Notes under the pieces: model-generated
Told to the model about the DNA's origin: nothing
Seen by the model: the letters and a program-made list of their open reading frames with translations, nothing else
Database searches by the model: none
Program-made: the position numbers and the translations under genes
From: an uncultured Desulfospira sp.
GTDB taxonomy: Bacteria > Desulfobacterota > Desulfobacteria > Desulfobacterales > Desulfobacteraceae
NCBI GenBank assembly: GCA_963663165.1
Contig: OY760175.1
Span: 928,001-992,000 of the forward strand
Length of the DNA stretch: 64,000 bases
Reading direction: 5' to 3'
In this document: positions 30,308 to 50,711 of the stretch, piece by piece
Layout of the letters: each line of letters begins with the position of its first letter
How positions within the stretch are numbered: the first letter of the stretch is position 1

Positions 30308-30631
30308 GCTTAACCTCCTGTGGACTGTGCGGTTATGCGGTGTACGCCAGCCCTAACCAATTGATTTTCTGGATTTCTATTTTTCGTGTGCTGCAAAAGA
30401 TATTAAAATGGGAGCCTGCCTGGTGTCAACAAAAGAATGGTCGAAAAAAACGGTTCTGTTTCACAAGGTGCGGCACAATTTTGAACCGCCGGGTTCCGGT
30501 AACGGTCGGGAACGGTCAGGTAACGCAATTTGTGTTATTCGGCTGCCGGTATGGCTCTGTCCTTTGAGGCGGACCATGCTGATTTTACGGGGAAATGCTC
30601 TTTTATGAATTTTTTTCGACAATCAAACCCT

Positions 30632-30648
30632 TTGGCATGATGCATGCA
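30632..30648 (+). promoter_or_regulatory. Sigma54 promoter for the DUF1638 gene
   Basis: TTGGCATGATGCATGCA (GG-N10-GC); GGTAACG boxes at 30498-30525. Confidence 0.7.
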
Positions 30649-30789
30649 TTATAAATTTACAGTTATGCAGAAACCTTACCTCCATAATTTTCTGTTTAAC
30701 CACCTCACCACCGTCCGGGGCAGCTTAATACCGCCAGTGGCTGCCCCGGACTTCACCCACAAACGTTCAAGCCTTAAAAGGAAAAATCA

Positions 30790-31446
30790 ATGGAAAATGT
30801 AAGTTTTAAAGATTGCGCCATTGTCGCCTGCGGCACCATGAGCCTTGAGCTCAATCATCTCAAGGGGGAAGGGTTTCTCGATACCGATCATCTGTTTTAC
30901 ACCACCCCCGGGCTTCATCAGGATATTGTTAAACTGGAATCCCAGCTGGTCAAAATGATTGAAAAGGCCAGGACAAAAGCCGGTAAGGTCATTGTGGTGT
31001 ACGGGGGAAAGTACTGCTATGTAAACCCGGACCAGCCCACAAGACTGATGAAACACCTGGTGGAAGATCAGGGCAAGGGCATAAGTCGCGTTGATGCGAC
31101 CCATTGCATGGGCATGCTGGCCAGTGACGATGACATGAAAAAAATAGCGGAAGAAATGGCCGGCGGCGAGCCGGTCTGGTTTATGACCCCCGGCTGGGTA
31201 AAATACCGGCACGAAGTGTTCAAGGGATGGGACAAGGGGGTGGCCAACGAGAACTTCCCCCGGCATACCGGCGGCGCCATTGTCCTGGACGGCATCGGGT
31301 TTATGGACCAGTACATGGCCGAAAAGCCTGAAGAATTTCTTGAGTACTGTGACTGGATGGGAATTCCCATGCAGGCCTGCCCCATTACCCTGGACCGGTT
31401 CAAGGGGCTTTTGACGGATGCGCTGTTAAAGACGGGTCAGCCATAA
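30790..31446 (+). CDS. DUF1638 domain protein
   Basis: IVACG, PGLH, VVYG..C, HCMGML, FMTPGW. Confidence 0.8.
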   Translation: MENVSFKDCAIVACGTMSLELNHLKGEGFLDTDHLFYTTPGLHQDIVKLESQLVKMIEKARTKAGKVIVVYGGKYCYVNPDQPTRLMKHLVEDQGKGISRVDATHCMGMLASDDDMKKIAEEMAGGEPVWFMTPGWVKYRHEVFKGWDKGVANENFPRHTGGAIVLDGIGFMDQYMAEKPEEFLEYCDWMGIPMQACPITLDRFKGLLTDALLKTGQP

Positions 31447-31551
31447 CGGCCCCTATCCTGTTGGCAGAAACCGGGCGGCCCTGGTTGTTCAAACCAAAGG
31501 CTGCCCTCAAAAAACCTGGCAGCCTTCAGTCTAAACCCCTTCAGCCTTTTT

Positions 31552-32265
31552 TTAGAAATAATGGGGCATGTAATCGATATCAGCCTGGTCAAATTCCTTG
31601 AACAGAAGTTTGAGCCGCTCATTGGCCGTATGGACGGCCAATGGTTTTTCATCGCTTTCCCGGGCCGTGGGATAGCAGGACAGGCAACGCTGGAACCGGC
31701 TGTTCTGCCCAAGGGCCGCAATGGTAAAGTCGGCCATCAGAAAAGTCTGTTCATTCTTTTTGGCGGCAAAATGCTCTACTGCAGGGATGATCTCCAAGCT
31801 TACGTCAATATGGACCTTATGGCCCTCTTTGGCAATATGGATATAGTCATGGATGGTCAACATCCCGCCTGTAAAAGGGTCCCGGCCAAGATCAATCTCA
31901 TCGTATTTCACCATCATTTTTTCTAAGCTGAACGAGGTGTCCGGCATTTGAATTCCCGTGTCGGCCAGCCGCTTGAAATCCCGTTTCAGATACCGGTTGG
32001 CAATCATCACGGCCTGGGAAACATGGGGACACAGGTTGTGGGGACACCCCTTTGCGTAGCATTTCCTGAAGGCATATGCCCGGCTGCCGCAAGTTCCGGA
32101 ATAATGGCACAAAAAGACAAAGGCCTGGAACGTAACATCGGCCTGGGCAAAATTGACGGGCACGATCTCAAAACCGGTCCGGCAGGTAACCGTTTCCCCC
32201 TGGTTTTTCAGTTGGATCAGATCGGTCACCCGGTTCGGTGCCGGGCTGCTGATTGCGGTTTCCAT
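31552..32265 (-). CDS. Cys-rich hypothetical protein, last gene of the Hdr-like operon
   Basis: 237 aa; RKCYAKGCPHNLCPHV and RCLSC; co-oriented with the operon. Confidence 0.7.
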   Translation of the reverse strand: METAISSPAPNRVTDLIQLKNQGETVTCRTGFEIVPVNFAQADVTFQAFVFLCHYSGTCGSRAYAFRKCYAKGCPHNLCPHVSQAVMIANRYLKRDFKRLADTGIQMPDTSFSLEKMMVKYDEIDLGRDPFTGGMLTIHDYIHIAKEGHKVHIDVSLEIIPAVEHFAAKKNEQTFLMADFTIAALGQNSRFQRCLSCYPTARESDEKPLAVHTANERLKLLFKEFDQADIDYMPHYF

Positions 32266-32285
32266 TTTTCCCCCTTTATCAAGGC

Positions 32286-32651
32286 TTAATAAACCAGTTG
32301 GGCGTCGGCTTCCAGGGCAAGCATGTTCAAGGCCCCGCCGGTGGTGACCTCTGTGCCGTCAATGAGATCTGATTCCTCAATTTTCCGGTCCTGGATACAG
32401 GGCTTGCACACCATGAGCTTTCCGCCAAGCTCCATAAAATCTGCCATGAGTTTGGTCAGAGGCGCAAAACCGCCCGTGGCCGGGACATGCTCAATATACC
32501 CTTTCTGAGCCAGGTAAACGGCGCTGCCCTGGAGGGCAACTGTGGTATCCACATCAAGGGCAATGGCGGCACAGGCCATGGCAAAACAGATGGACGCCTT
32601 TTCCGCATCATCTCCGCCATGGGTACAAAAGTAGACGATTTTTTCAGACAT
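32286..32651 (-). CDS. DsrE/DsrF-like sulfur relay protein
   Basis: THGGDDAEKA, GSAVYLA, VCKPC. Confidence 0.82.
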   Translation of the reverse strand: MSEKIVYFCTHGGDDAEKASICFAMACAAIALDVDTTVALQGSAVYLAQKGYIEHVPATGGFAPLTKLMADFMELGGKLMVCKPCIQDRKIEESDLIDGTEVTTGGALNMLALEADAQLVY

Positions 32652-32768
32652 GATTTTCTCCTTTAGATTTGTTTAGGGGTTTAGGCTGAAGGGGTTTAGA
32701 CTGAAGGAAATCGATCGCCTTTCGAGCAGCGAGACCTAACCGTCTTCAGCCTTCAGCCTATCCACCTT

Positions 32769-33695
32769 TTAAATATGTTCTACCAATAAGCTGCTCAGAT
32801 CCCGCACATCAGCCCCGGCCTTTTTAAGGTTCCCCATACAGATGGGGCACATGGCAATGATGGGCTTGCCGGGTTCTGAAAGCTCCCCTGCCCGTTTTTC
32901 CATGATCTGGCTGGAAAGCTTGGGGGAAATGGATTCGGCAGGCCCGCCGCAGCAGCTGGTGAAGTCCCGGGAATTCCGGATCCGGGTTTCCCGGATTCCC
33001 AAGCCTGCCAGCACTTTTCTGGGGATATCGGATACGCCCAGATACCGGCCGAAAAAACAAGGGTCATGCAGGGTAACCTCAAGGCCGGCATTTTTGGATT
33101 CAAGATTCAGCAGTTCAAAATAGGGAACCACCTCAAATTGAGCCCCGGTATATTTGGGAAAAAGTTCTTTTAAGGCATAGGTGGTATGGGGATCAATGGT
33201 AATAATTTTTTTGATTCCAGCCTGTTGCAGCTTTTTGGCAACTTTCCTGGCATGGGCCACAAACCCTTTCTGGTCGCCCATGTCATAAAGCAGAATCCCT
33301 GAATAATGGTCCAGATCCGGCCGGTAGCCAAAATCCACCCCGGATTGCCTGAGCAGGCGAACCACATTTTTCAAAGGAATGCCGGCCTTTGCCTTTTCCT
33401 TTGCCCGGGTCATGAGGGCCAGGCCGATTCCTGAAAAAGTGCCGGGAACATACCGGGCATATTTGAGATAATCTGCCGTCGGGGTGTCCTCATAGGTCGC
33501 AAGATACCGGGTGGATGTCTCAATATACGGGATAAACTGGTACATCAGGCCGGTATACAAAAGGTATTTCCCGTCATGGGGAAGATTTTGAGTTTTATAC
33601 CAGGTATTGACCATGAACTTAGGGATTCCAAAAGGGCTCATGGTCTGCCTTACGTTCCGGGCAAGGACCTCAATGATATCTATAGGATTGAACAT
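32769..33695 (-). CDS. CCG-domain Fe-S protein (HdrB/HdrD-like)
   Basis: HDPC, SCCGG, MCPIC. Confidence 0.8.
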   Translation of the reverse strand: MFNPIDIIEVLARNVRQTMSPFGIPKFMVNTWYKTQNLPHDGKYLLYTGLMYQFIPYIETSTRYLATYEDTPTADYLKYARYVPGTFSGIGLALMTRAKEKAKAGIPLKNVVRLLRQSGVDFGYRPDLDHYSGILLYDMGDQKGFVAHARKVAKKLQQAGIKKIITIDPHTTYALKELFPKYTGAQFEVVPYFELLNLESKNAGLEVTLHDPCFFGRYLGVSDIPRKVLAGLGIRETRIRNSRDFTSCCGGPAESISPKLSSQIMEKRAGELSEPGKPIIAMCPICMGNLKKAGADVRDLSSLLVEHI

Positions 33696-33699
33696 GATG

Positions 33700-34002
33700 T
33701 CAGGACCTCCTCTGGTAATCCACAACAAAGCGTTTGAGTCCCAGGATAATCTCGCCGGGATCGGCCTGTCTCGGACAGGTATGGGTACAAAGCCCGCAGT
33801 GCAGGCACTTCCACAGTTCATTGGCGTTTTCTAAAATGGCCTGCTTTGCCCCGATCTGGATGTACCGGATCATTCGCCTGGGAAAATTGTCGTTGACCAG
33901 GGGGCATACGGCGGCGCAGGTGCCGCAGTTAAAACATTCAAGCGCCGTATCCTGGCAATAGGGGGCCAATTCTTGGGCAAAATCCAAATCAACACTTGTC
34001 AT
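33700..34002 (-). CDS. HdrC-like 2x[4Fe-4S] protein
   Basis: CFNCGTCAAVCP; FPRRMIR; CLHCGLCTHTCP. Confidence 0.88.
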   Translation of the reverse strand: MTSVDLDFAQELAPYCQDTALECFNCGTCAAVCPLVNDNFPRRMIRYIQIGAKQAILENANELWKCLHCGLCTHTCPRQADPGEIILGLKRFVVDYQRRS

Positions 34003-34003
34003 G

Positions 34004-34339
34004 TCACACCTTCTCTTTTTCCCGGGGTTGATTATTGCCCCCGGACCCATGGGTTGTATTTAATTTGTATTTAAAAAATGATCCGTCCTTGGGCCCTTCC
34101 ACAATCTGTCCATACTTTTTAAGGGTGGCCATGTACCACAGGGTCCGGTCCGTGGGCATCCGGACCCCTTGTGAAATCTCAGGGATCGTGGCGTCACCAT
34201 TTTCAAGAAACGCCAGGATGTCCCCCATCTGTTTTTTTTGCTGCTTCATTTTGGCGGAGGCCTTCTTGATGGACTCCTTTCGCCGGGCCCTTAAGGCTTT
34301 CATGGCCTCTTTTCGGGTCTCTTTGTCTTGCTGTTCCAT
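34004..34339 (-). CDS. Small winged-helix protein
   Basis: ATIPEISQGVRM..RTLWYMATLKKYGQI. Confidence 0.7.
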   Translation of the reverse strand: MEQQDKETRKEAMKALRARRKESIKKASAKMKQQKKQMGDILAFLENGDATIPEISQGVRMPTDRTLWYMATLKKYGQIVEGPKDGSFFKYKLNTTHGSGGNNQPREKEKV

Positions 34340-34387
34340 GATATGGTTCTCCCCCTGATTTATTTTTGGGATAGCGGTGAGGCTGCC

Positions 34388-36163
34388 TTAAGCGGCTGAG
34401 ACGATGGCATCCACCATTTTTTCGTATTGTTCCAGCGCCCATCCGTTCAGATCAATGGCCTTTTCCGGACAGACCGCCACACAGGCCCCGCATCCTAAGC
34501 ACATGGCCGCGGTGACCTGAGCCTGCTTCACGGTTTGGCCCTGCCGCTGAACCTCAACCAGGTTCAGGGCACCTTCCTTGATGCAGGCATCCACGCAAGC
34601 CCCATGGCCCTGGCATTTGTCCGGATCGACCTCGGCCACAAAGGGATCCAGTTCAATCACGGCTTTGCCCAGCAGGGCACAGGCTTTGGCGGCGGCCGCG
34701 CCGGCAGCATTGCAGGCTTCGCCCGAATCCATGGGGGCCTGGCAGGTGCCGGCCAGGAACACGCCGGAAACCGGAAATTCCACGGGCCTGAGTTTGGGAT
34801 GGACTTCGAGCAGGAACCGGTCGGTCCCCACGGGCAGTTTCATGATTGAGGCCAAATTGCCAACATCGCTTGGCTCAACCCCTGCGGCCAGGACCACCAG
34901 GTCGGCCGGGACGACCATCTCCTCATTAAAGGTCAGGGAATCCGTGACCTTCACGGTCAGGGGATAAGCAGATCCGGCCGATTTTTCAACCTGGGGCGGG
35001 GCATCGGCCTCATACCGCATGAACACCACCTTGTTGGCGCTGGCCCGGTTGTAAAGGTCTTCCTGGCCCCGGCCATAAGTTCTGATATCCCGAAACATTT
35101 CATATATCTGTGTTTGGGGATAGGATTCGCGAATCTGGTTGGCCGCATTGAGCATGGCAGCGCAGCAGGTCCTTGAGCAGTACTCGTTGAGCTGCCCGTT
35201 CTCTTTGGGCTGGTGAATTCCGGGAATCTGCCGGGAGCCCACACAGTGGATCATGGCAATATTCCGGACGGGCCGCCCTTCAAATTCAAACCGGTTTCCA
35301 CCCGGGGCGCCCTGTTTGAGGGCCTCAATCAGGGTCTGGAGGGTGATGACCTGCCGGTGGGTGCCAAAACCGAACTCCCCTTCAAAGGGCTGGTAAGGCA
35401 CGGATCCCGTTGCCATGACAATGGCCCCGGTGTCGATCTTAAATGATCCGTCTTTCCCCGTAACATCCAGGGTGAAATTGCCGACATAGCCTTGGACATC
35501 CGTGACTTCACTGCCCGTGTGTACGGTAATGGCAGGCTCTGCCGTTACCTGGGCGAGCAGTTCATTGAGGATATCCGATGCCTTTTCCCCGAACGGGGCC
35601 AGCCGGCCTAAATTATTCAGGTGTCCGCCCAAGGTTTGGGTTTTTTCGATCAGTGCCGTTTCAATCCCGTTTTGGGCCATATCCAGGGCGGTCTTGAGCC
35701 CGGCAATGCCGCCGCCGATGACCACGGCATGTTTTTTCGCATCCACCCGGATGGGCTCCAGGGGTTTAAGTTTTCCGGCCTTGGCTGCGGCCGCTGAAAT
35801 CAGCACCGCGGCCTTGTCCGTAGCCGGATCACCGTGATGGACCCAGGAGACCTGCTCACGGATGTTGGCATGCTCATAAACAAACGGATTGGCCCCGGCC
35901 CGTTCAATGGCCCCCCTGAAGGTGGCCTCATGAAGGCTCGGGGCACAGGACGCCACCACTACCGAATCGATTTTCCCGGCTTTAAGATCCTCGATGATCA
36001 TTTCCTGGCCGGGATCAGAACACATGAACATATTGGTCCTGGCCACGGCCACGCCCGGTATTTTTTCAGCCCGGTTTCTGACCTCTTCCACGTCCACGTG
36101 GTCGGAGATGTTCCCCCCGCAGTAGCAGATATAGACCCCGACTTTTTGATCGTTTTCTTTCAT
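34388..36163 (-). CDS. hdrA: HdrA-like FAD/Fe-S protein (long copy)
   Basis: VYICYCGGNI, ASCAP..HE, ANIREQ, GGGIAG, CVGSR, CSRTCC, C-terminal ferredoxin. Confidence 0.88.
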   Translation of the reverse strand: MKENDQKVGVYICYCGGNISDHVDVEEVRNRAEKIPGVAVARTNMFMCSDPGQEMIIEDLKAGKIDSVVVASCAPSLHEATFRGAIERAGANPFVYEHANIREQVSWVHHGDPATDKAAVLISAAAAKAGKLKPLEPIRVDAKKHAVVIGGGIAGLKTALDMAQNGIETALIEKTQTLGGHLNNLGRLAPFGEKASDILNELLAQVTAEPAITVHTGSEVTDVQGYVGNFTLDVTGKDGSFKIDTGAIVMATGSVPYQPFEGEFGFGTHRQVITLQTLIEALKQGAPGGNRFEFEGRPVRNIAMIHCVGSRQIPGIHQPKENGQLNEYCSRTCCAAMLNAANQIRESYPQTQIYEMFRDIRTYGRGQEDLYNRASANKVVFMRYEADAPPQVEKSAGSAYPLTVKVTDSLTFNEEMVVPADLVVLAAGVEPSDVGNLASIMKLPVGTDRFLLEVHPKLRPVEFPVSGVFLAGTCQAPMDSGEACNAAGAAAAKACALLGKAVIELDPFVAEVDPDKCQGHGACVDACIKEGALNLVEVQRQGQTVKQAQVTAAMCLGCGACVAVCPEKAIDLNGWALEQYEKMVDAIVSAA

Positions 36164-36164
36164 A

Positions 36165-37454
36165 TCAGATTCTCCCGTTGGCGTTGGACATGAATTTGGC
36201 GGCTTCCATGGCGGCCGAGCCTGACTCGGTGATGGTATCCACAATGTCCTTGGGGCCGGCGGCGGCCCCGGTGGTAAACACCCCTGCCATATCCGTTAAT
36301 ACCGGAGAAATTTTAGGCTTGATGGAGGTGATGAAGTGATCCGTATCCGTTGAAACCGGACAGATGCCGGCCGGATCCCATCCGGGCACCATGCCCATGG
36401 AAAGGATGACCAGATCGTGGCTGGCCGTGTCAATGCCCGAACCGTCCTGGCGCTCGTACCGGACCGCTACGCTCCCATTTTCCCCGGGATCAATCCGGCC
36501 GACCTTGGCCTTAACAAATTCAATGCCCATGGCCTTGGCATTCTGGTAAAACTGTTCATAGCCTTTGCCAAAGGCCCGGATATCCATATAGTAAATGGTA
36601 ATATCCGCCAGGGGCAAAGAACCGGAAAGCAGCATGGCCTGCTTGATGGCATACATGCAGCAAACCCTTGAACAATAGGGAACCCCCATTTGTTTATCCC
36701 GGGAGCCCGCACACTGGACATAGGCTACCGAGTCGGGTTCCATGCCGTCTGAAGGCCGCAGCACCCGGTTGTAGGGGCCGTGAGGGGCCAGAAGCCGCTC
36801 CATCTGAAGGGAGTCAATGACATTGGGAATAAGGCCGTTCCCATAGGGAGCATTCTGTTCCTTGGGCAGCAGCTCAAACCCGGTGCTTATGACCGCCGTT
36901 CTGGCCTCAATGAGAAAATCTTCGCCCTCCTGGAGATAGTCAATGGCCTTTGTGGGACAGATCTTTTCACACTGCCCGCAGAGCATGCAGTGGTCCGGGG
37001 AAAGGACCGGCAGCTGGGGAATGGCATTGGAAAAGGGGATGGAAATGGCCTTTTTAGCGCTCAATCCCCCCTGTTCTTCGTCAGGGATATAAACCGGACA
37101 GACGTATTCGCATTTCCGGCAGCCGATGCACTTGTCCTCGTCCACATACCTGGGGTTCCGGCGAACCTTGGCCTTTACACCGGATTCGTCCCGGGTAAGG
37201 GAGGACAGGTCACAATAGGTAAACAGGGTAATATTTTCATGATGGGCGGCAGATGACATCTTCGGGGTGGTAATGCAACTGGCACAGTCCAGGGTGGGAA
37301 ACACCTTGGACAGGCGGATCATCTTGCCGCCGATGGACGCGTCTTTTTCCACAACAGCGACCTTGTATCCCTGATCGCCAAGGTCCAGGGCGGTTTGAAG
37401 CCCTGCGATGCCTGCGCCCACCACAAGGGTGTCAAATGATTGAATGGGGAGCAT
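36165..37454 (-). CDS. hdrA: HdrA-like FAD/Fe-S protein (short copy)
   Basis: GAGIAG, KVFPTLDCASC, ferredoxin insert, CAGSRD, CSRVCC, GPKDI. Confidence 0.88.
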   Translation of the reverse strand: MLPIQSFDTLVVGAGIAGLQTALDLGDQGYKVAVVEKDASIGGKMIRLSKVFPTLDCASCITTPKMSSAAHHENITLFTYCDLSSLTRDESGVKAKVRRNPRYVDEDKCIGCRKCEYVCPVYIPDEEQGGLSAKKAISIPFSNAIPQLPVLSPDHCMLCGQCEKICPTKAIDYLQEGEDFLIEARTAVISTGFELLPKEQNAPYGNGLIPNVIDSLQMERLLAPHGPYNRVLRPSDGMEPDSVAYVQCAGSRDKQMGVPYCSRVCCMYAIKQAMLLSGSLPLADITIYYMDIRAFGKGYEQFYQNAKAMGIEFVKAKVGRIDPGENGSVAVRYERQDGSGIDTASHDLVILSMGMVPGWDPAGICPVSTDTDHFITSIKPKISPVLTDMAGVFTTGAAAGPKDIVDTITESGSAAMEAAKFMSNANGRI

Positions 37455-37495
37455 GGTTCCTCCTAGTAGATGGCTTGGCCGGTTTTCCGGCCGGG

Positions 37496-37915
37496 TCAGC
37501 ATGAAAGCTGCGGCGGCCCCAGCTCACTGACCAGCTGGTTCATCTGATTAATTTCATTTAAAAACGCCCGGTTGCAGACCGTGCAGATGGCGGTCAGGCG
37601 CAGCCGTTTCAAATCCAGGTTAAGGGCCTTCATCTTCTGATAGACCGAGTTGAGCCGGGTGGCCATGGCCTTGTAGGCCCCGTCATAGGGGCACTCTTCG
37701 CCGCAGGACATCACGATAATGCCGCTGATGCCTTTTTTGAAACAGTCAATGTAAAAGGATTCCGGGAACAGGACCGGGGCCCTGACCCTTAAAATGTAGG
37801 TATTTGCCGGATAGGAAGAGTGGGCCTGGCCCACGGAATCCGCGCCCGGATATGCGCAGGTTTCCGTGGCCAGAACCAGGATCTTGTTTGCCGTTGGGGT
37901 CCCTTGGGATGACAT
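37496..37915 (-). CDS. mvhD: MvhD/FlpD-like [2Fe-2S] subunit with atypical Cys pattern
   Basis: CAYPGAD; MSCGEECPY; RLRL..ICTVC. Confidence 0.8.
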   Translation of the reverse strand: MSSQGTPTANKILVLATETCAYPGADSVGQAHSSYPANTYILRVRAPVLFPESFYIDCFKKGISGIIVMSCGEECPYDGAYKAMATRLNSVYQKMKALNLDLKRLRLTAICTVCNRAFLNEINQMNQLVSELGPPQLSC

Positions 37916-37926
37916 GGCGGCCTGCC

Positions 37927-38175
37927 TTATTTCTTCCGGGTGACAAAATGCCGGTCATACCCGTCTGCCTCAAGAAATCCCATGTATTCGTGCCCGACCT
38001 TGCCGGCCCAGGCCGGGATATCGTTCCGGGTTCCTGAATCGTTGGACAGGATTTCCAGGGTCTGGCCCACCTGGACCTTGCCGATCCCTTTTTTGGCTTC
38101 CAGAAGGGGGCCGGGGCAGGCACTGCCTCTGGCGTCAGCTGTGTTGGCCGCTTCAATTGCATTTAGATCTGTCAT
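37927..38175 (-). CDS. tusA: TusA-family sulfur carrier
   Basis: DARGSACPGP (CPxP); DIPAWA..GH. Confidence 0.9.
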   Translation of the reverse strand: MTDLNAIEAANTADARGSACPGPLLEAKKGIGKVQVGQTLEILSNDSGTRNDIPAWAGKVGHEYMGFLEADGYDRHFVTRKK

Positions 38176-38243
38176 GATGATGTTCCTTTCGGTTTGGGTT
38201 AAAAATTCCACCGGGTTAGGGTGATCCGCTGATAACCTGTATG

Positions 38244-38260
38244 AGCAAGGTCAATGCCAA
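38244..38260 (-). promoter_or_regulatory. Sigma54 promoter of the tusA-hdr operon
   Basis: TTGGCATTGACCTTGCT on the minus strand; GGTAAC/GTTACC boxes at 38367-38411. Confidence 0.8.
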
Positions 38261-38606
38261 AAGGATTAAATAAAAAATTTAGTTCTTAAAAAACGACAAA
38301 TTGTTTTAATTTCAAGCGGTTTGTCCGGCTGACAGTCACCGTTGAAGGCTTTGGAGAATGGATTCAGATAACGTTACCCTTGGGAACGGGTAACGGTTTG
38401 GTTGCGTTACCCCCGGTATAAAATTTGAACCGCGCGGGGCCGGACAATACTGTTTGCCAATTCGTACTCAGAGATATAGACTTCTTTCCTCTATCTTTCT
38501 GTGTTAATACAAGCTGTCGCATCCAGGCTCATTTCAGATTCCTGGCCCGGCCCGGCGATATTTGCGTATATGTAAAATATTTTCAATATTTAGTAAATTA
38601 TTTTAA

Positions 38607-38635
38607 TTGACAGGCATTATCTAACCCGATAGGTT
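38607..38635 (+). promoter_or_regulatory. Sigma70-type promoter for the corrinoid cluster
   Basis: TTGACA-17 bp-TAGGTT. Confidence 0.55.
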
Positions 38636-38641
38636 GGTCCG

Positions 38642-38756
38642 AAATAGGACTTTTTTGCTAAAAATAGGACTTTTTTGCTAAAACCTGCTTACTATTTATT
38701 TTCTTTGTGAATTGTTTTGAACGACCTGTTTTGAACGACCTGTTTTGAACGACCTG
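38642..38756. repeat. Two perfect tandem repeats in the leader (20 bp x2 and 14 bp x3)
   Basis: AAATAGGACTTTTTTGCTAA x2 (38642-38681); TGTTTTGAACGACC x3 (38713-38754). Confidence 0.92.
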
Positions 38757-38916
38757 GGGGGCTTTTCTATGGGGAGTTGGGAACCTGGCGGCGATATTAA
38801 ATGAGCGGACGGTGAATTCACACAGGTATCACCCGTTTGCAAGGCCCCCCGGCCGCATGCCAGCCAAGAGGCCTTTGATATAAGCGTTTTACACACCAAA
38901 TAAGAGGAGATGGGCA

Positions 38917-39570
38917 ATGACAACCAAGCAAGAAATTCTTTCCAAGCTCAGCGAGGCGGTCTTAAAGTTTGAAGAAGAGGACGCGCGGACCTCAGCCATT
39001 GAAGCCCTGGAAAACAACATCGACGCTGTTGAGGCCATACTGGACGGCTTTGTGGTCGGAATGAAAAAAGCCGGTGAGTTGTTCAAACGACAGGAGTACT
39101 TTGTTCCGGAAATCCTGTTGTGCGCCGACGCTATGGAAGAAGGCATGAAAATTTTGCGGCCACACATTTCTAATAACAAAGCCACAAGCTCAAAAGGAAA
39201 AATCATATTGGGGACCGTAGAGGGCGATATTCATTGTATCGGGAAAAATCTGGTCAAATTGATGCTGGATACCAACGGATTTGAGGTTTACGACCTTGGG
39301 GAAGATGTTCCTGTATCCCGATTTGTCGAGGAACAAAAACGTATTGGTGCCGATATCGTCGCTTTGTCTACCCTGATGACAACAACGATGATGGCGGTCA
39401 AAAATTCGATTCCCATTCTAAGAGAAAGCGCTCCCGAACTGGCCATCATGGTTGGTGGCGCGCCGTTTACAGATGAAATTGCAAAAAAATTCGGTGCCGA
39501 TGGATACGCTTCTGACGCAATTACTGCCGTTAATGAGGCGGAAAGGATTATGGCTGCAAAATTAAGTTGA
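38917..39570 (+). CDS. Corrinoid (B12-binding) methyl carrier protein, MtaC/MtbC-like
   Basis: GTVEGDIHCIGKNLV (DxHxxG); MVGGAP; cap domain. Confidence 0.93.
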   Translation: MTTKQEILSKLSEAVLKFEEEDARTSAIEALENNIDAVEAILDGFVVGMKKAGELFKRQEYFVPEILLCADAMEEGMKILRPHISNNKATSSKGKIILGTVEGDIHCIGKNLVKLMLDTNGFEVYDLGEDVPVSRFVEEQKRIGADIVALSTLMTTTMMAVKNSIPILRESAPELAIMVGGAPFTDEIAKKFGADGYASDAITAVNEAERIMAAKLS

Positions 39571-40592: not shown

Positions 40593-40653
40593 AAAAAATC
40601 CAGAAGCCAAACAATAGTAAGCTTAATTTATTAATCATTTGAAAGGAGCCACA

Positions 40654-41685: not shown

Positions 41686-41699
41686 GACAACATAACATA

Positions 41700-43485: not shown

Positions 43486-43512
43486 CCCATTATCTTAACT
43501 TAAGGGATTATT

Positions 43513-44586: not shown

Positions 44587-44619
44587 GGAATCGGAACCGG
44601 ACCTAAAAAAACCTGCCGT

Positions 44620-45471
44620 ATGGAAAAAGACAATTTGAGCCTTGCCGAATCTATTGGTATTAATGTCCGAAAGTTAAGAAAAAAAAGCAATTATACCCTG
44701 AAGAATCTTTCTGATAAAACAGGGCTTTCCATTGCGTTGCTTTCAAGAATTGAGAATGGGCAGCTCAGCCCGTCCGTTAATACACTCGATAAAATCGCCA
44801 ATGCGCTGGGGATTGAAATATCTCATATCCTTCAAGAAGAGCTGTCACCGGATCAGCTGGGGTTGGAAATTTCAGAAAAAATTAAAAAACGCATGAAAAT
44901 TTTTGGAATTTCCATAGTTGAACTATCAGAAAAAAGTGAAATCCCAGAGACCATGCTGAAGCGGTTTTTAAAAAATGAAATATTTTTATCCATCCCCAAT
45001 TTTATGCGGCTGGCCAATATCCTGAAAGTTGATTTAAGCTACTTTTTCCAAAACTCACCCAATAAAAACTTTGTGATCAGCCGAAAAGACAACCGGACTT
45101 TAAATGAATGGATGGGGAAAAAAGGAAAACCCAATTATTTGGTTGAAATACTATTTGAAGATTTCCCCAACCAGGTAATGGAACCGGTTATTTCCACACA
45201 TGTTGCCAAAGAAGATTTCCTCATTAAAGCCAGCCACGCAGGCCAGGAATTTTTTTATGTGCTGGAAGGAAAGGTCAAATTGTTCCTGGACGATCATAAA
45301 ATCATTCTAAATCAAGGGGATGCCATTTACTTTGACTCCCATCTGCCCCATGCGGCGGTAAGCATCAGTGATGCGCCCGCAAAAACCATTCATACCCATT
45401 TTGCGCCCTATTCGAGGTTAAAAACAGGGGCTTTGCCTCAAAAAGGAATCGATAAACCCCAAAAGGTCTGA
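44620..45471 (+). CDS. XRE regulator with two HTH domains and a cupin domain
   Basis: LSIALLSRIENG..PS HTH; second HTH; HAGQEFFYVLEG..GDAIYFDS.LPH. Confidence 0.88.
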   Translation: MEKDNLSLAESIGINVRKLRKKSNYTLKNLSDKTGLSIALLSRIENGQLSPSVNTLDKIANALGIEISHILQEELSPDQLGLEISEKIKKRMKIFGISIVELSEKSEIPETMLKRFLKNEIFLSIPNFMRLANILKVDLSYFFQNSPNKNFVISRKDNRTLNEWMGKKGKPNYLVEILFEDFPNQVMEPVISTHVAKEDFLIKASHAGQEFFYVLEGKVKLFLDDHKIILNQGDAIYFDSHLPHAAVSISDAPAKTIHTHFAPYSRLKTGALPQKGIDKPQKV

Positions 45472-45530
45472 ATCCGGACAATTATCATTTAAAATTCGTT
45501 ACCGGCCATCCTGATTTCCAATAGTAAATT

Positions 45531-45718
45531 TTTATATAAAAGTCTCACTAACATCCTGATAAGACTTTCAATATTTGTTGTGGGCGGTTCTTGGTTGGAT
45601 AACCAAGACGGCCCGTGGCCGTTCATAAGAAACTGGAGACAAGAGGGCGAAGCACCTGCGGTGCCCAATTTATAGTCTACCGTTGCTGGTATCTTCAGTT
45701 TCATTATTCGTTGTGGGC
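45531..45718. repeat. Copy of the 26721-26922 mosaic repeat
   Basis: 47 bp core at 45577-45623 with both linkers. Confidence 0.88.
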
Positions 45719-45903
45719 TTGTGGTCCGTGACTGTTTGTAACCGCCGTTGGTACTATATTTGCTTACAATGTTGTTTGGCTTAACAATGAATTTATGATC
45801 TTGGGTTATCCGAAAAAAAAGGGATGGCCAGGTTGATGGTAATCTAAAATTAAAACATCGAATCCAAGACGGGAGACCTGTCCCATGGATCCAGGAGGTA
45901 AAG

Positions 45904-46908
45904 ATGCGAAAGAAAGACAGGACAGGGGTCAGCCGAAGGGCGTTTTTAAAAGGGGTAGCCGCCGGGGGCGCCTGCATGATGTTGCCCGGAACGGTGAAAG
46001 CGGCGCAACAGGGTAAGGTACTGGCTACCCTGCATGATCTGTCTCGGTGTATTGGCTGCGGGGAATGTGTGTCTGCCTGTACCGCACAGAATGAAGCCAA
46101 GTATCCGGAACCCCAAAAACCCTTTCCCAGGATGTATCCTGACCGGGTCAAGGTGGCGGACTGGTCGGATAAGCGTGATATGGACGACCGGCTCACCCCT
46201 TACAACTGGCTGACCATCCAGAGCGTTGAGGTTGAATGGCAGGGGGAATCCTATGAAATCCATATCCCCCGGCGCTGCATGCACTGCGAAAATCCCCCCT
46301 GTGCCAACCTGTGTCCCTGGGGGGCCTGTGCCCGGGAGGACAATGGTGTGGTGCGCATCAATTCGGATATCTGCCTGGGCGGTTCCAAGTGCCGGTCGGT
46401 CTGCCCCTGGGATATTCCCCAGCGCCAGACAGGTGTGGGCCTTTATCTTAAACTCATGCCGGCTTTTGCCGGCAACGGGGTCATGTATAAATGTGATCGC
46501 TGTTTTGATCTGTTGAGCCAGGGCGGTGTACCGGCCTGTATCAGTGAGTGCCCCGAAGAGGTCCAGTTCATCGGCCCCCGAGATGAGATCCTGGCCCGGG
46601 CCCACGAGCTGGCCAGATCCTTTGCCGGCAGCGGCAATGAAACCGATTTCATTTATGGGGAATTTGAAAACGGTGGCACCAACACTATATATGTTTCGCC
46701 GGTCCCCATTGAGGTGCTGGCCAAGGCCCTTGAGGCCGGGCCGGGAAATCCCCATATGAACCCGGTTGAGGATATGATGGCCAAAGATGAAATTTTTGGC
46801 ATGGCCGCCCTGACCGCGCCATTGGCCGGCGTGGCCGCCGGGGTGCTCACGGCTGGGGCAGGACTGCTCAAATTAGGCGGGAAGGATAAGGAGGAGACCC
46901 ATGAATAG
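45904..46908 (+). CDS. Tat-exported multi-[4Fe-4S] protein (DmsB/HybA/FdnH-like) with C-terminal anchor
   Basis: SRRAFLK; CIGCGECVSAC, CMHCENPPCANLCP, CLGGSKCRSVCP, KCDRC..PACISECP. Confidence 0.87.
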   Translation: MRKKDRTGVSRRAFLKGVAAGGACMMLPGTVKAAQQGKVLATLHDLSRCIGCGECVSACTAQNEAKYPEPQKPFPRMYPDRVKVADWSDKRDMDDRLTPYNWLTIQSVEVEWQGESYEIHIPRRCMHCENPPCANLCPWGACAREDNGVVRINSDICLGGSKCRSVCPWDIPQRQTGVGLYLKLMPAFAGNGVMYKCDRCFDLLSQGGVPACISECPEEVQFIGPRDEILARAHELARSFAGSGNETDFIYGEFENGGTNTIYVSPVPIEVLAKALEAGPGNPHMNPVEDMMAKDEIFGMAALTAPLAGVAAGVLTAGAGLLKLGGKDKEETHE

Positions 46909-47368
46909 TCTTTTTTCCAGAGGGATGAACCGCATCCTGCTTTCGGTCATGGCCATCCTTGCCCTGACCGGCATGGCCCAGATGCCCATTTTCAAACGGT
47001 ATTACATTGCCGATATTCCGGGATTCGGGTGGCTGGCCGCCTATTATACCACCCACCAGATCCATTATATGGCAGCGTTTGTGTTCCTGTTTGTGCTGTT
47101 CTGGATGGCCGCGGAATACCTGATGCGCCGGCGCAGGGAATGGCGGGTCACCCCCATGGGCTGGATGCGGCTGGCTGTCCTGGCCATGATCGTGGCCACC
47201 GGAATGTTACGGACCGTGAAAAATCTGCCCGGCCACGGGTTCAGCCCCATGGCGGTCATGCTGGTGGACTGGATTCATCTGGCAGGGGCCATGCTTTTGG
47301 GCCTTATCGCCATCCTTGCAAGAATAGGCCCCTGGCGCCGGAATGGGGTTTATGCCGCACGGCGGTGA
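46901..47368 (+). CDS. Small membrane partner, possibly cytochrome b-like
   Basis: Four hydrophobic segments with His in THQIHY and WIHL; overlaps the upstream gene. Confidence 0.7.
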   Translation: MNSLFSRGMNRILLSVMAILALTGMAQMPIFKRYYIADIPGFGWLAAYYTTHQIHYMAAFVFLFVLFWMAAEYLMRRRREWRVTPMGWMRLAVLAMIVATGMLRTVKNLPGHGFSPMAVMLVDWIHLAGAMLLGLIAILARIGPWRRNGVYAARR

Positions 47369-47468
47369 CTAAGGTAATTAGACTGAAGGTGGTTAGGCTG
47401 AAGGGATGCGCAACCCTAAATCCCTTCAGTCTTTAGCCTAAATCCCCAGGTTTTATTGGAGACAATCT

Positions 47469-48860
47469 TTACCCCTGCAACGGAATATCCCATTTTTTCA
47501 TATATTTCCAGACAGCGGTCCGGCTCTTGTTGATCTGCCGGGCCACTTCGGCTTTGTTCCAGCGGCACTCTTCGAGCAGCTGGATGAGGCTCTCCCGGGT
47601 GATTTCCCGGTTGGAAAAATCCGTGGTCAGCCGGGGTCCCATTTGAGGCGAGGCCTTTACCATATGGCTTTCCCGGATTTCAATGGGAAGATCTTTTAAC
47701 TGGATCTGATGGGATTCACACAGGACAAAGGCATGCTCGACGGCGTTTTCAAGTTCCCGGACATTCCCGGGCCAGGGGTGTTCCATGATCTTTTTCATGG
47801 CCTGGGAGCTGAGGCTGGATATATGTTTGCCTTCTCTTTTATTTCCCTTGTCCAGAAAGTGGCTGACCAGCAGGGGAATGTCATCCCTTCTTTCCCGCAG
47901 GGGCGGCACATGGACCGGGAAAACCTTGAGCCGGTAGAACAGGTCCTCACGGAACTGCCCCTCCCGGACCATGCGGTAAAGGTCTTTGTGGGTGGCGGCA
48001 ATGATCCGGATGTCAATTTTGATTTTTTTTGAATCCCCTACCCTCTCGATCTCCCTTTCCTGGAGAACCCTAAGCAGCTTGACCTGCATGTAAGGGGTGA
48101 GTTCTCCGATCTCGTCCAGGAAAATGGTGCCCTGGTCCGCTTCCTCGAACCGGCCTTTCCTGTCCCTGTGGGCCCCGGTGAACGCCCCTTTGACATGGCC
48201 GAACAGCTCACTTTCCAGCAAGGTTTCGGACAGGGCTGAACAGTTGACCGTGATCAGGGGTTTTTCCCCGCCGGGACCGTTGTAATGGATGGCCCCGGCC
48301 ACCAGTTCTTTGCCCGTGCCGCTTTCCCCGTAAATAAGGATGTTGGCCTGGCTGTTGGCCGCCGCCCTGATGGCGTCAAACACGTTTTGCATGGCCGTGC
48401 TTTTTCCGATGATATTGCCCAGCCGATAGGCTTTTTTAAGCTTTCTTTGGGCCTCTTCGGCGGTCTGCCGGACCTTCTTGAGCTCTGTCAGGTCCGTGAC
48501 GGTCTCAACAATACCGAGAACCCGGCCCTCCTCATCCTTTGCCAGCCGGGCGTTTTTTATCACAGGGATGTCATGGCCGTCTTTATGGCGGATAAAGCAT
48601 TCTTTGGTTTCGGTCCTGCCATGTTCAATCACCCCGCATTTTTGAATGTCGGCCGGGCAGTTCCGGCCAAAACAGCGGCTGCACTCAATGAGGCGGCACG
48701 TCTTGCCGATGGCTTCCTGTGCGCCGTATCCGCTAATTTTTTCCATGGACCGGTTCCAGGACGTGATGATCCCTTTGGGATCCAGAATGAAAAGTCCTTC
48801 AGCCATGGTGTCGAGAATTTGATTTAAAAAAGAGACATTCCAGATGTCATGGGTTTTCAT
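47469..48860 (-). CDS. Sigma54 enhancer-binding protein with Cys-rich PAS domain (OrpR-like)
   Basis: PAS with [43 protein letters not shown]; Fis-type HTH. Confidence 0.92.
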
Positions 48861-48955
48861 AAGGCAAGTCCTGTTGTCATCCCTGTTATGGTAACTGTTT
48901 GGTAACGCTACCGTTATCTGAACTGGTTTGCAAGCCTAAGGTTTACAAAATAAAC

Positions 48956-48972
48956 AGCAAACCCCGTGCCAG
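48956..48972 (-). promoter_or_regulatory. Sigma54 promoter facing the PAS-EBP gene
   Basis: CTGGCACGGGGTTTGCT, consensus match. Confidence 0.7.
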
Positions 48973-49052
48973 GCGGCCAAGTGCATGTGGGGAACGGCTT
49001 TTTTCTGTTTATAAGTAAGGTTCGGAAACCCTATGGGTAAAAATTTTATAAC

Positions 49053-49069
49053 CTGGCATAAAACTTGAT
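49053..49069 (+). promoter_or_regulatory. Sigma54 promoter (GA variant at -12) for thioredoxin
   Basis: CTGGCATAAAACTTGAT; GGTAAC boxes at 48890-48918. Confidence 0.6.
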
Positions 49070-49117
49070 TTATCAATATGTCAGACAGTTCAGGAACCAC
49101 GTGTAAAGGAAACGAAA

Positions 49118-49417
49118 ATGGACAAAGAACAATTTCAGGCAGGCCTTAAGGGGAAAACCGTCCTGGTGGTTTTTGGGGCATCCTGGTGCGGACCGTGCCG
49201 GGCCATGGCGCCGGTGATCCGGGAAATTATGGATGAACTCGGAAGCCGGGCAAAAATTCTGGAAATGGACATTGATTCGGAAAAAAACCTGGCCATGGAT
49301 TACATGGTTCAAAGTATCCCGACCCTTATCCTCTTTAAGAATGGGGTAGAGATCAAACGATTGGTAGGAACTCAATCAAAAGATGTTATTTCAAACTTGC
49401 TGAATACGGTGGTGTAA
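49118..49417 (+). CDS. Thioredoxin
   Basis: WCGPC; SIPTLILFKNG. Confidence 0.93.
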   Translation: MDKEQFQAGLKGKTVLVVFGASWCGPCRAMAPVIREIMDELGSRAKILEMDIDSEKNLAMDYMVQSIPTLILFKNGVEIKRLVGTQSKDVISNLLNTVV

Positions 49418-49523
49418 AACACCTGAATTACCGCTTTCAAACCAGAACGCCCCATCTGCGCGGTGTGATTATCCTAACTGGCAAGCAACTTATTTTACAC
49501 CCTCTGAACCGTCAAATCAAATT

Positions 49524-49586
49524 ACCATGAAAATCATGAAGCGCAAGAAGGCGCTTGTCCTTCATGCGCTTCATGATTTTCATGGT
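49524..49586. repeat. Inverted repeat built from 9-mers, between convergent genes
   Basis: ACCATGAAAATCATGAAGCGCA.GAAGG ... CCTTC.TGCGCTTCATGATTTTCATGGT. Confidence 0.85.
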
Positions 49587-49658
49587 TATTAAAAAATCGG
49601 ATCTATGCGGTGCCGATCAGTAAGGGTTATAACCATTGAAAATCAAAATTATACTCTT

Positions 49659-49871
49659 TTACCGCCAGACCAGAGATTCTTTGTTCCCGACAATATCCCC
49701 TGGCTGGACAGGCTTGTCGGTCCAGACAATTCTGGTACTGCATTCCCATTCATCCTTGTTCAGCTCTTTTTGCCGTTTGGCCAGATTCCTTTCAGAATCT
49801 TTCCGGCTGGCATGGACGGAAATAACCTCACGTTCGGCCGTATGATTATTTTGATAAATCAGTGCATACAT
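49659..49871 (-). CDS. Small hypothetical protein
   Basis: 70 aa ORF with GGGAGG RBS, downstream of DUF4242. Confidence 0.6.
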   Translation of the reverse strand: MYALIYQNNHTAEREVISVHASRKDSERNLAKRQKELNKDEWECSTRIVWTDKPVQPGDIVGNKESLVWR

Positions 49872-49967
49872 TGGCTGGCCCTCCCCTGATGTTGACTGGC
49901 ATCATTTCATTCGGAGTGCAGGCCGGGAAAGCGGTGAATCCGGCCTGTACTCCCGTTTAAATTTTAT

Positions 49968-50282
49968 TCAGTTGCCCAGGGTATCGGCAACCGCCTCTTT
50001 TTCAATGTGAACCTGCCAGCTTTCACCCCACAGATCCGGAACAGTTTCCTCCACCGGTAAAATAGAATCCCACCCAATCCCGATTTCCGAAAAAACCTCT
50101 TTGAGGACGCCTTCATCAGGGGCCATCCACAGGCAGTACCGGACGCCTTTTTCGTCGTTATAGTATGTTCTGATCCATGTTGCGGCTTCAACGTCAGCCA
50201 GTTTTCGCCAGTTGGCCTGGACCTGTTCGCAGTCAATGCCGGGGTTGCTGTGTACCATCATATACTTTTTAAATTTGGCCAT
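49968..50282 (-). CDS. DUF4242-like protein
   Basis: YMMVH..PG, WIRTY, YCLWMAPD; AAGGAG RBS. Confidence 0.75.
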   Translation of the reverse strand: MAKFKKYMMVHSNPGIDCEQVQANWRKLADVEAATWIRTYYNDEKGVRYCLWMAPDEGVLKEVFSEIGIGWDSILPVEETVPDLWGESWQVHIEKEAVADTLGN

Positions 50283-50359
50283 GATTCATCTCCTTGATCT
50301 CGTATGGTTGTTGTCTTGATCCAAAAGATGCACATCAATTGGGAGTTAAAAATAATAAT

Positions 50360-50376
50360 ATCAATAACCGTGCCAG
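50360..50376 (-). promoter_or_regulatory. Sigma54 promoter (GA variant) for DUF4242
   Basis: CTGGCACGGTTATTGAT; GGTAACG boxes at 50517-50566. Confidence 0.7.
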
Positions 50377-50576
50377 CCATTCATATACAGCTGGCAGCGA
50401 CATCAACAGACGATAGACGCCAGAAGGGAATAAGTGGAAAATGCCGTCAAAAGGTTATTTTCCCGGATAATGGGAATCATACTTTGTGGATCAGATGATG
50501 GAATTTATGGCCACAGGGTAACGGCACCGGTACCGGTATGGGTAACGTTACGTAACGTTAAGTTACTTCTTATATT

Positions 50577-50711
50577 TTATGCCTTTTCCCCTGGATACAA
50601 ATCCGGGTGTTCTATCCATATGGCATGGTCCACCATCCCAAGGGAGGACAGAATGTTGACCAGGGTGAGGGCCAGTGCCGATCCTTTAGGGCCGGCACTG
50701 GCCGTGTCCCA
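50577..50711 (-). pseudogene. 3' remnant of the hypothetical gene that is intact at 58876-59178
   Basis: Encodes WDTASAGPKGSALALTLVNILSSLGMVDHAIWIEHPDLYPGEKA*; cut off at the repeat starting 50714. Confidence 0.8.

Follow-up and report, generated by a model that had tools for sequence, protein, structure and literature searches.

OrpR (DVU2106) of Desulfovibrio vulgaris Hildenborough is described as a PAS-domain sigma-54 activator with a redox-sensitive [4Fe-4S] cluster (PMC8359166). For the same organism, the regulons of enhancer-binding proteins, 37 activators in all, have been reconstructed (Kazakov et al., 2015, PMC4641369). A different protein, NreB, is reported to be a sulfide sensor in Bacillus licheniformis, where a CX2CX11C motif ligates a [2Fe-2S] cluster in its PAS domain and the protein controls the sulfur-detoxifying sqr-pdo genes, whilst NreB of Staphylococcus carnosus is an oxygen sensor with a [4Fe-4S] cluster and the motif CX2CX11CX2C (PMC13478379). 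Here, we describe a 64-kb stretch of DNA from an uncultured Desulfospira sp. (contig OY760175.1), referred to as the window, in which all coordinates are window positions. It encodes a PAS-containing sigma-54 activator, in the neighborhood of which several -24/-12 promoters are accompanied by clusters of a short DNA box. The best overall explanation, to which we give a probability of roughly 0.78 on the strength of the sequence comparisons, is a regulon in which this activator, fitted with a sensor domain, would act via the boxes on sigma-54-dependent promoters. That the adjacent activator binds the predicted boxes and controls the promoters bearing them is, as one part of this explanation, highly probable.

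The window activator resembles OrpR, as published, in its PAS/AAA+/Fis-type helix-turn-helix (HTH) architecture, the conserved cysteines in the PAS domain, the divergent sigma-54 targets alongside its gene and the anaerobic, sulfate-reducing host. A preliminary description of this DNA had presented OrpR as a PAS sigma-54 activator that senses redox via an Fe-S cluster, which agrees with the source (PMC8359166). However, the two proteins differ in several respects. The reported operator of OrpR is GGGCGYRTTTTGCGCCC, whereas that of the window activator is predicted to be RGTAACGTTACY, and GGGCGYRTTTTGCGCCC has no counterpart in the window even when 3 mismatches are allowed. The PAS cysteines are C52, C61 and C65 in OrpR and C55-X4-C60-X2-C63-X4-C68-X6-C75-X12-C88 in the window protein, in which the triad spacing CX8CX3C, known for OrpR from its description, is not present. 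Furthermore, GAFTDA in OrpR, again by its published description, corresponds to GAFTGA in the window activator. Only two operons, the orp operons, are reported as targets of OrpR, whereas the predicted targets in the window are thioredoxin, tusA-hdr and two DUF genes, and Pfam detected no orp-type targets among the neighboring genes in the window. Orthology with OrpR was rejected since the operator is absent and the cysteine spacing and the targets differ; the window activator is therefore an analogue, not an orthologue, of OrpR.

The layout is the same as that of the D. vulgaris regulons as reconstructed, i.e., an activator beside its targets, palindromic sites ~100-350 bp upstream of the -24/-12 elements, and small regulons (Kazakov et al., 2015). 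Yet, none of the 37 activators in Table 1 of that study has thioredoxin, tusA or hdr targets of the kind present in the window. The strings GTAACG and CGTTAC are absent from its binding-site table, and the DNA-binding helix of the window activator, compared by eye, matches none of those listed there (PMC4641369). A regulon of the DVU3142/Ohc type, which was considered in view of an adjoining HmcB/OhcB-like gene, was rejected as well, since the DVU3142 sites are of another type and the site table contains no GTAACG. In the open-access literature, GTAACG-type motif strings yielded nothing relevant by title, nor was a description of this tusA/dsrE sigma-54 regulon found, as judged by title or abstract. 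The predicted system is a classical enhancer-binding-protein regulon with a new operator and an uncharacterized activator family.

The activator contains a PAS domain, a Sigma54_activat domain (Pfam PF00158, E 1.1e-71, residues 150-316) with an AAA_lid match, a GAFTGA loop, and a Fis-type HTH in its last 53 residues (PF02954, HTH_8, 29.6 bits vs. a cutoff of 22). Together with target promoters of the class with GG at -24 and GC at -12, found at five sites in the window (two of them with TTGA at -12), the AAA+ domain with GAFTGA and the Fis-type HTH are the characteristics of an enhancer-binding protein. None of the curated NCBIfam activator families (NifA, PrdR, AtoC, NorR, and others) was reached, with 390 vs. 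529 bits for NifA and 377 vs. 795 for PrdR. A search with the PAS region (residues 1-135) returned 586 protein clusters at E <=1e-10, and the named ones among the 120 listed carried only generic names.

In the window, GGTAACG is present in 12 copies, where 4.17 are expected (standard deviation 1.95), a number reached in 0 of 100 shuffles. Eight of these copies fall inside four intergenic clusters. When the looser pattern [GA][TG]AACG was considered on both strands, only three places in the window contained at least three boxes per 60 bp (30499, 38368, and 50518), each of them in one of these clusters; in 200 first-order Markov simulations, such places numbered 0.23 on average and 3 at most. 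Further clusters were not found in the window, except for one degraded duplicate (~58810-58870). Promoters were scored against a simple -24/-12 consensus with a maximum of 14.5, and sites of at least 12 were listed. The clusters lie 108-135, 108-152, 135-163, and 142-191 bp from the promoters they accompany. The four clusters that the preliminary description had placed ~100-190 bp upstream of -24/-12 promoters are thus located at 108-191 bp, and the four promoters it had named are present, but it had overlooked the strongest site in the window, i.e., that of the activator gene itself (48956-48971, minus strand). Its gene calls (DUF1638, the tusA-hdr operon, the activator, thioredoxin, and DUF4242) were confirmed by Pfam and NCBIfam.

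For comparison, 80 orthologous activator loci (protein identity 57-84%) were collected in one scan of species-representative genomes. They span Desulfospira, Desulfobacter, Desulfobacula, Desulfotignum, Desulfosarcina-like genomes, and unclassified relatives, and the comparison covers the window and the 10-kb flanks of the activator in the relatives. Isolates with a species name in this set are Desulfobacter curvatus, D. vibrioformis, and Desulfospira joergensenii. At this divergence, the intergenic DNA shares little beyond the boxes, A/T-rich words, and one hairpin word. Without any prior motif, no other 6-mer proved as widespread as GTAACG in the 150-bp regions preceding the activator gene, where it is present in 55 of 71 as compared with 5.3% of 4000 random chunks; motif discovery on orthologous upstream regions, which had been proposed as a check, therefore returned the box as its top result. 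Within a 360-bp window around the gene start, 56 of 69 orthologous activator genes have at least one box and 52 have at least two, whereas the 25 paralogous activator genes of these loci have none. A sigma-54 promoter located 40-260 bp away and pointing away from the cluster accompanies 67 of 118 box clusters (57%), vs. 1360 of 16200 random positions (8.4%), and 49 of 77 cluster-promoter distances in the relatives are 80-140 bp. With the boxes at orthologues and not at paralogues, the enhancer-like distances, and the synteny of the targets, comparative genomics backs the earlier proposal that the activator would co-control the Hdr-like operon, thioredoxin, and the DUF genes.

The boxes are helically phased, as had been noted for the window, where the spacing in the first cluster is 10 and 11 bp. 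In the relatives, the spacing of boxes in the same orientation peaks at 10-11 bp (43 pairs), 20-22 bp (21), and 31-33 bp (17), and the commonest arrangement is the palindrome GTAACGTTAC, with 50 occurrences. In 297 boxes, the bases following GTAACG are T (168), T (226), A (199), and C (151). These counts suggest that the full site in the family is the palindrome RGTAACGTTACY and that GGTAACG, which the preliminary description had taken as the box and which is real and over-represented, is therefore only its half-site. The 10-mer TTTGAACCGC is found just distal to the first two clusters (30480-30489 and 38424-38433), with a third exact copy in the window at 29235-29244. It occurs in 5 of 80 related loci without a consistent association with boxes there, and may be a chance occurrence or a species-specific co-factor site. 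The features are listed in Table 1.

Table 1. Coordinates of the predicted regulon in the window.
Feature	Position	Strand	Remarks
Box cluster 1	30498..30525	+	GGTAACG, GGGAACG, GGTAACG as direct repeats, 10 and 11 bp apart; predicted enhancer of the DUF1638 promoter
DUF1638 promoter, sigma-54	30633..30648	+	TGGCATGATGCATGCA; score >=12; 5' leader ~130 nucleotides
DUF1638 gene	30790..31446	+	218 amino acids; Pfam PF07796, E 1.8e-21
Putative tusA-hdr operon	31552..38211	-	Order: tusA; mvhD-like; hdrA-like (445 amino acids); hdrA-like (618 amino acids); open reading frame of 111 amino acids; hdrC-like; hdrB-like (CCG domain); dsrE-like; open reading frame of 237 amino acids; Pfam, NCBIfam
tusA-hdr operon promoter, sigma-54	38244..38259	-	TGGCATTGACCTTGCT; score >=12
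Box cluster 2	38367..38411	.	Five boxes including the palindrome GATAACGTTACC; predicted enhancer of the tusA operon promoter
Enhancer-binding protein (activator) gene	47469..48860	-	463 amino acids; PAS, AAA+ with GAFTGA, Fis-type HTH
Box cluster 3	48890..48918	.	GGTAACT, GGTAACG, CGTTATC, i.e., one exact box and two variants
Activator gene promoter, sigma-54	48956..48971	-	TGGCACGGGGTTTGCT; best consensus match in the window
Thioredoxin promoter, sigma-54	49053..49068	+	TGGCATAAAACTTGAT; 11.5/14.5 by hand, below the listing threshold; non-canonical TTGA at -12
Thioredoxin gene	49118..49417	+	99 amino acids; Pfam PF00085; TIGR01068, 98.0 bits vs. cutoff 96.8
DUF4242/SCO4226-like gene	49968..50282	-	104 amino acids; Pfam PF14026, E 2.3e-18
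DUF4242 promoter, sigma-54	50360..50375	-	TGGCACGGTTATTGAT; score >=12
Box cluster 4	50517..50566	.	GGTAACG, then GGTAACGTTAC GTAACGTTAAGTTAC; predicted enhancer of the DUF4242 promoter
Second DUF4242 promoter copy	54322..54493	-	Identical TGGCACGGTTATTGAT at 54376-54391

The activator itself and the divergently transcribed thioredoxin gene are, by this comparison, the predicted core of the regulon and its sole consistent members. A thioredoxin match (tblastn) is present within 10 kb of the activator in 44 of 80 loci, as its divergent neighbor in roughly 35 of them; the remainder are low-identity paralogues elsewhere in the locus. For the surveys of target promoters in the relatives, a score of 11.5 was used as the threshold, and boxes were counted within 400 bp upstream of thioredoxin. 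Among 31 thioredoxin loci, 27 have at least two boxes, mostly at -175 to -220, 21 have a promoter of at least 11.5, and 19 have such a promoter with a box upstream of it. By eye, a promoter of the form TGGCAT..TTGAx at -63 to -78 could be recognized in most of the 31, and TGGCATAAAACTTGAT in the window resembles these in sequence and position. A sigma-70-like promoter was not found in the activator-thioredoxin spacer of the window.

The third cluster, described earlier as adjoining the start of the activator gene, lies 30-58 bp upstream of the activator ATG (48860) and 135-163 bp upstream of the thioredoxin promoter. It is located downstream of the activator's own promoter. Of 68 regions upstream of the activator gene in the relatives, 27 contain a sigma-54 promoter on the strand of the gene; ~5 of these (all Desulfotignum) are probably chance matches in coding DNA. 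Boxes are found upstream of the promoter in 15 of these 27 and between the promoter and the activator ATG in 20. The compact layout, with boxes downstream of a promoter at -111 in the window and -119 in one related locus (L047, with a box at -57), is common to these two loci. Nearly all orthologous loci carry boxes between -40 and -65 relative to the activator ATG, including those without a same-strand promoter, where the boxes also serve divergent promoters. The activator-proximal cluster is probably both an enhancer of the divergent promoter and an autoregulatory site, at which, as far as the sequence goes, the activator's own promoter may be either activated or blocked. XylR and NtrC autoregulate via sites overlapping their own promoters and may offer an analogy.

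In at least 19 relatives (e.g., L011, 9760-9912, and L001, 9606-9755), a tiny hydrophobic open reading frame (ORF) (..IYILVQVYILPKMGIST) that ends in TGA is located between the sigma-54 promoter of the activator and the activator gene. After the TGA come an invariant ATG and, in frame, the conserved peptide M[KR]D[AS]CQVTD, which has a Lys-rich tail. A 5-bp hairpin, likewise conserved, begins 11 nucleotides beyond the TGA; it has an AGGU loop and one compensatory pair, and we take it to resemble a selenocysteine insertion sequence (SECIS). The tiny ORF is a candidate for a membrane-anchored selenoprotein of ~50 amino acids or, alternatively, for two coupled mini-ORFs. It has no match in Pfam or NCBIfam, and ORF and hairpin are both absent from the window.

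The tusA-hdr-dsrE operon, DUF1638, and DUF4242 are, as judged from the same loci, lineage-variable members of the predicted regulon. The genes at 31552-38211 are inferred to form one operon from their tight same-strand spacing. tusA and mvhD are present within 10 kb of the activator in 10 of 80 loci (tblastn, as for the other genes). In L002, L047, and L048, the orthologous tusA promoters score 14.0 at -51 to -60 and boxes are located at -214 to -169; a box together with a promoter was found in 3 of 7 scored loci, and clusters also precede tusA in L011 and L039. In the Desulfosarcina-like loci L057, L058, L061, L063, L066, and L068, a paralogous activator (43-46% identity) is divergent from tusA-mvhD-hdrA, and no GTAACG boxes are found there. 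Control of the tusA-hdr operon appears to have been swapped between paralogous activators in evolution.

DUF1638 is found within 10 kb of the activator in 20 of 80 loci. At least two boxes precede it in 7 of 18 relatives, and a promoter with a box in 3 of 18 (L027, L068, and L079). In L027, from Desulfotignum, the boxes are at -286 to -261 and the promoter at -158, almost as in the window (-292 to -265 and -157). The leader of DUF1638 in the window contains a hairpin with a 12-bp stem (30713-30751). In Phaeobacter, DUF1638 is reported to be genetically linked to cobalamin reactivation (PMC5764234), and it has been tied to the reductive reactivation of cobalamin (PMC5764234; PMC12478193). DUF4242 is rarer near the activator (2 of 80 loci); both relatives, L048 and L054, have a sigma-54 promoter, at -94 and -99, respectively, and one of the two has a box.

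The window contains two copies, 92-97% identical, of a 413-bp segment that carries the DUF4242 promoter and boxes (50303-50715). In the second copy, promoter and boxes are separated by a 4.28-kb insert (54494-58770), beyond which the box region resumes (58771-59014), its boxes degraded. Three proteins are encoded in the insert: an AAA_22 protein, one of 582 amino acids without a family, and a primase-like protein with a CHC2 zinc finger. CCCGGAT and CCCGGAC, found at its two junctions, give the insert the appearance of a mobile element flanked by a target-site duplication. Within it, just upstream of the orphaned promoter, are two lone GTAACGG boxes (54511 and 54615). Nearby, the window carries a second sigma-54 activator gene (60032-61570, plus strand), which encodes a protein of 512 amino acids with an N-terminal domain without an assigned family. 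It is divergent from a sigma-54-like site, TGGCACGATTGTGGCA (59859-59874, minus strand), that precedes a GyrI-like/Cass2 gene and an ORF of 124 amino acids (58876-59678, minus strand); the 3' end of the latter is located in the duplicated segment.

In the relatives, box-plus-promoter pairs are followed by 71 ORFs, 20 of which were picked for a Pfam scan. Eight of the 20 encode ACR3-like SBF transporters, six of them fused to Usp, and two encode proteins resembling coenzyme A (CoA)-disulfide reductase. The others include one each of an OYE-type flavoenzyme, a thioredoxin, an ABC transporter, and a DUF3373 protein, and six without a family, one of which was later named a porin by NCBIfam. These genes fit the thiol/sulfur theme. 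Closer to the activator in the window, a single GGTAACG (45497-45503) and a sigma-54-like site, TGGTACTATATTTGCT (45749-45764), precede a pair of genes (45904-47368) convergent with the activator gene, i.e., a gene for an HmcB/OhcB-like Fe-S protein with a twin-arginine (TAT) signal (45904-46908) and an ORF of 155 amino acids. Orthologues of this pair are also found near the activator in L008 and L012, and it may be a weak sixth member of the regulon. Control by the boxes of the corrinoid-protein/methyltransferase/TRAP-transporter operon, which starts at 38917, was considered but is unsupported, as no plus-strand site of at least 12 is present between 38412 and 38916. Upstream of this operon are tandem repeats of 2 x 20 bp (AAATAGGACTTTTTTGCTAA, 38642-38681) and 3 x 14 bp (TGTTTTGAACGACC, 38713-38754), which may be sites for another regulator, e.g., the HTH-cupin protein encoded at 44620-45471.

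The variable members bear directly on the alternative that survives best, unlikely as it is: the boxes are real, but the activator runs only the core, i.e., thioredoxin and itself, whilst DUF1638, tusA-hdr, and DUF4242 are mainly under another enhancer-binding protein, either the Desulfosarcina-type paralogue or the second activator of the window, and their boxes are weak or accessory. The box-less loci in which the paralogue is divergent from tusA-mvhD, the patchy conservation of boxes before DUF1638 and DUF4242, and the second activator gene are in line with this idea. However, the three densest clusters of the window, with 3-5 boxes each, are those of tusA, DUF1638, and DUF4242, no activator paralogue adjoins these units in the window, and the close relatives L002, L047, L048, L011, L039, and L027 keep boxes at matching positions before tusA and DUF1638.

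Somewhat less likely again is that another, unlinked transcription factor binds the boxes, whose position would then reflect regulation of the activator gene and thioredoxin by that factor. Binding by the activator is indeed deduced from sequence, the box is short, and a 10-bp palindrome would be compact for a dimer of a Fis-type HTH. Nevertheless, the boxes track the orthologous activator and not its paralogues, they are located at enhancer distance from sigma-54 promoters, which require an enhancer-binding protein, and no other regulator gene consistently adjoins the box loci. Moreover, activators are reported usually to adjoin their targets (Kazakov et al., PMC4641369; quoted in PMC8359166). 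It is very improbable that the clusters represent a dispersed repeat or the remains of a mobile element, with no role in regulation: the neighborhood does contain repeats resembling repetitive extragenic palindromic (REP) sequences (45581-45623, 50714-50756, and 26689-26948), and the fourth cluster is part of the duplicated 413-bp segment, but the four clusters have only the boxes in common and differ in their number and orientation, boxes are kept across genera with otherwise dissimilar intergenic DNA, and the REP-like repeat was found in 0 of 80 related loci.

What the activator senses can be approached through its PAS domain, which contains six cysteines (Cys55, Cys60, Cys63, Cys68, Cys75, and Cys88). 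In 70 orthologues, C55, C63, C75, and C88 are invariant, whilst C60 is kept in 91% and C68 in 89%; an alignment of 32 sequences was also made. C60-X2-C63-X11-C75 is an exact CX2CX11C pattern, which in NreB is reported at a nearly equal position of the PAS domain (C63/C66/C78), a likeness of pattern only (PMC13478379). NreB is a histidine kinase, whereas the window protein is a sigma-54 activator with the additional invariant cysteines C55 and C88, and the replacement of C60 in 9% of the orthologues departs from the NreB pattern. No NreB chain was among the matches in sequence or fold searches of the PDB with the PAS domain. An AlphaFold model showed a PAS fold, with a mean predicted local distance difference test (pLDDT) score of 74.8. 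A LOV-type flavin sensor was considered, as 'GKTCRLIEC' aligns with the LOV sequence 'GRNCRFLQC' and LOV domains top the fold search, but was rejected because the residue after the cysteine varies (R, S, G, T, N, A, D, or C).

The cysteine pattern, in combination with the thiol, persulfide, and sulfur-carrier functions in the regulon, leads us to prefer a sensor that reads redox or sulfur state via an Fe-S cluster or via thiols. More narrowly, a cysteine-ligated Fe-S cluster in the PAS domain may be suggested by the sequence, at slightly less than even odds. As for the signal, redox or sulfane sulfur/sulfide is somewhat favored over a metal(loid) or other ligand. A possible analogue in this respect is the sigma-54 activator FisR of Cupriavidus, which is reported to sense sulfane sulfur via cysteines.

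Several points weigh against the regulon with its sensor as proposed here. The 80 loci share phylogenetic kinship, so that the counts do not represent independent events, and all support is deduced from sequence, i.e., sites, clustering, phasing, position, conservation, domain architecture, and invariant cysteines, which were computed directly. Promoter-plus-box membership is not general for DUF1638, tusA, and DUF4242, as the counts given above illustrate, and in the Desulfosarcina-like loci a different activator paralogue adjoins tusA-hdr. In two window promoters, those of thioredoxin and DUF4242, TTGA replaces TTGC at -12. The activator's own promoter lies upstream of the third cluster, and boxes downstream of a promoter are unusual for activation. 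With respect to the sensor, the case for an Fe-S cluster consists solely of the cysteine pattern, the cysteine loop is poorly defined in the model (pLDDT <50 at residues 64-70), and both fold and sequence searches with the PAS domain returned only generic PAS/LOV domains. Furthermore, similar cysteine motifs are reported to have arisen independently in unrelated PAS domains (PMC13478379).

For the activator-box-sigma-54 regulon, the following mechanism can be envisaged, in which we infer the binding of the boxes by the activator, its cofactor, its signal, and the polarity of the response. The HTH domains of the activator would bind the GTAACG boxes (full site RGTAACGTTACY), which are arrayed on one face of the helix every ~10.5 bp. 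The ATPase ring would then loop to sigma-54 RNA polymerase at the -24/-12 promoters, 80-190 bp away, and open them. In the window, five promoters would be driven in this way, i.e., those of thioredoxin, the tusA-mvhD-hdrA-hdrA-hdrCB-dsrE operon, DUF1638, DUF4242, and the activator gene, with the third cluster doubling as the divergent thioredoxin enhancer and as an autoregulatory site. A cysteine-ligated Fe-S cluster in the PAS domain may gate the ATPase according to the redox or sulfur state of the cell, and the regulon would constitute a thiol, persulfide, and low-potential repair set. A more far-reaching version, which we consider speculative and rather unlikely, is that the activator represents a new class of Fe-S sensor, in which a sigma-54 ATPase is joined to an NreB-like CX2CX11C motif with two more invariant cysteines. 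In sulfate reducers, this sensor would respond to sulfide, sulfane sulfur, or redox potential and switch on a dedicated reductive module comprising the TusA/Hdr-like/DsrE complex, thioredoxin, DUF4242, and the cobalamin-reactivation factor DUF1638 together, and many relatives would co-transcribe with the activator a membrane-anchored selenoprotein of ~50 amino acids that is new to the literature.

The surroundings of the activator gene contain some further repeats. The REP-like repeat, which has internal palindromes, is located at 45581-45623 and 50714-50756, and also at 26689, 26780, and 26927. The first two form a perfect inverted pair of 43 nucleotides that brackets a 5.1-kb block with the HmcB-like Fe-S gene, the ORF of 155 amino acids, the activator, thioredoxin, and DUF4242. 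Downstream of thioredoxin is a 32-nucleotide inverted repeat with 94% complementarity (49520-49590). Rfam detected no family in the window, including this repeat and the hairpin in the DUF1638 leader (30713-30751).

The regulon predicted here would provide a shared regulatory context for poorly understood genes of marine sulfate reducers, i.e., those for the TusA-MvhD-HdrA-HdrCB-DsrE complex, DUF4242, and DUF1638, whose link to corrinoid reactivation has so far been genetic only. In the relatives, the ACR3-like/Usp transporters and the CoA-disulfide-reductase-like enzymes gain the same context. With the helically phased operator RGTAACGTTACY and an activator family that has only generic names in the databases, regulon prediction becomes possible in any Desulfobacteraceae genome. 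If the PAS domain does hold an Fe-S cluster, OrpR would be joined by a second Fe-S enhancer-binding protein, one with a much broader regulon.

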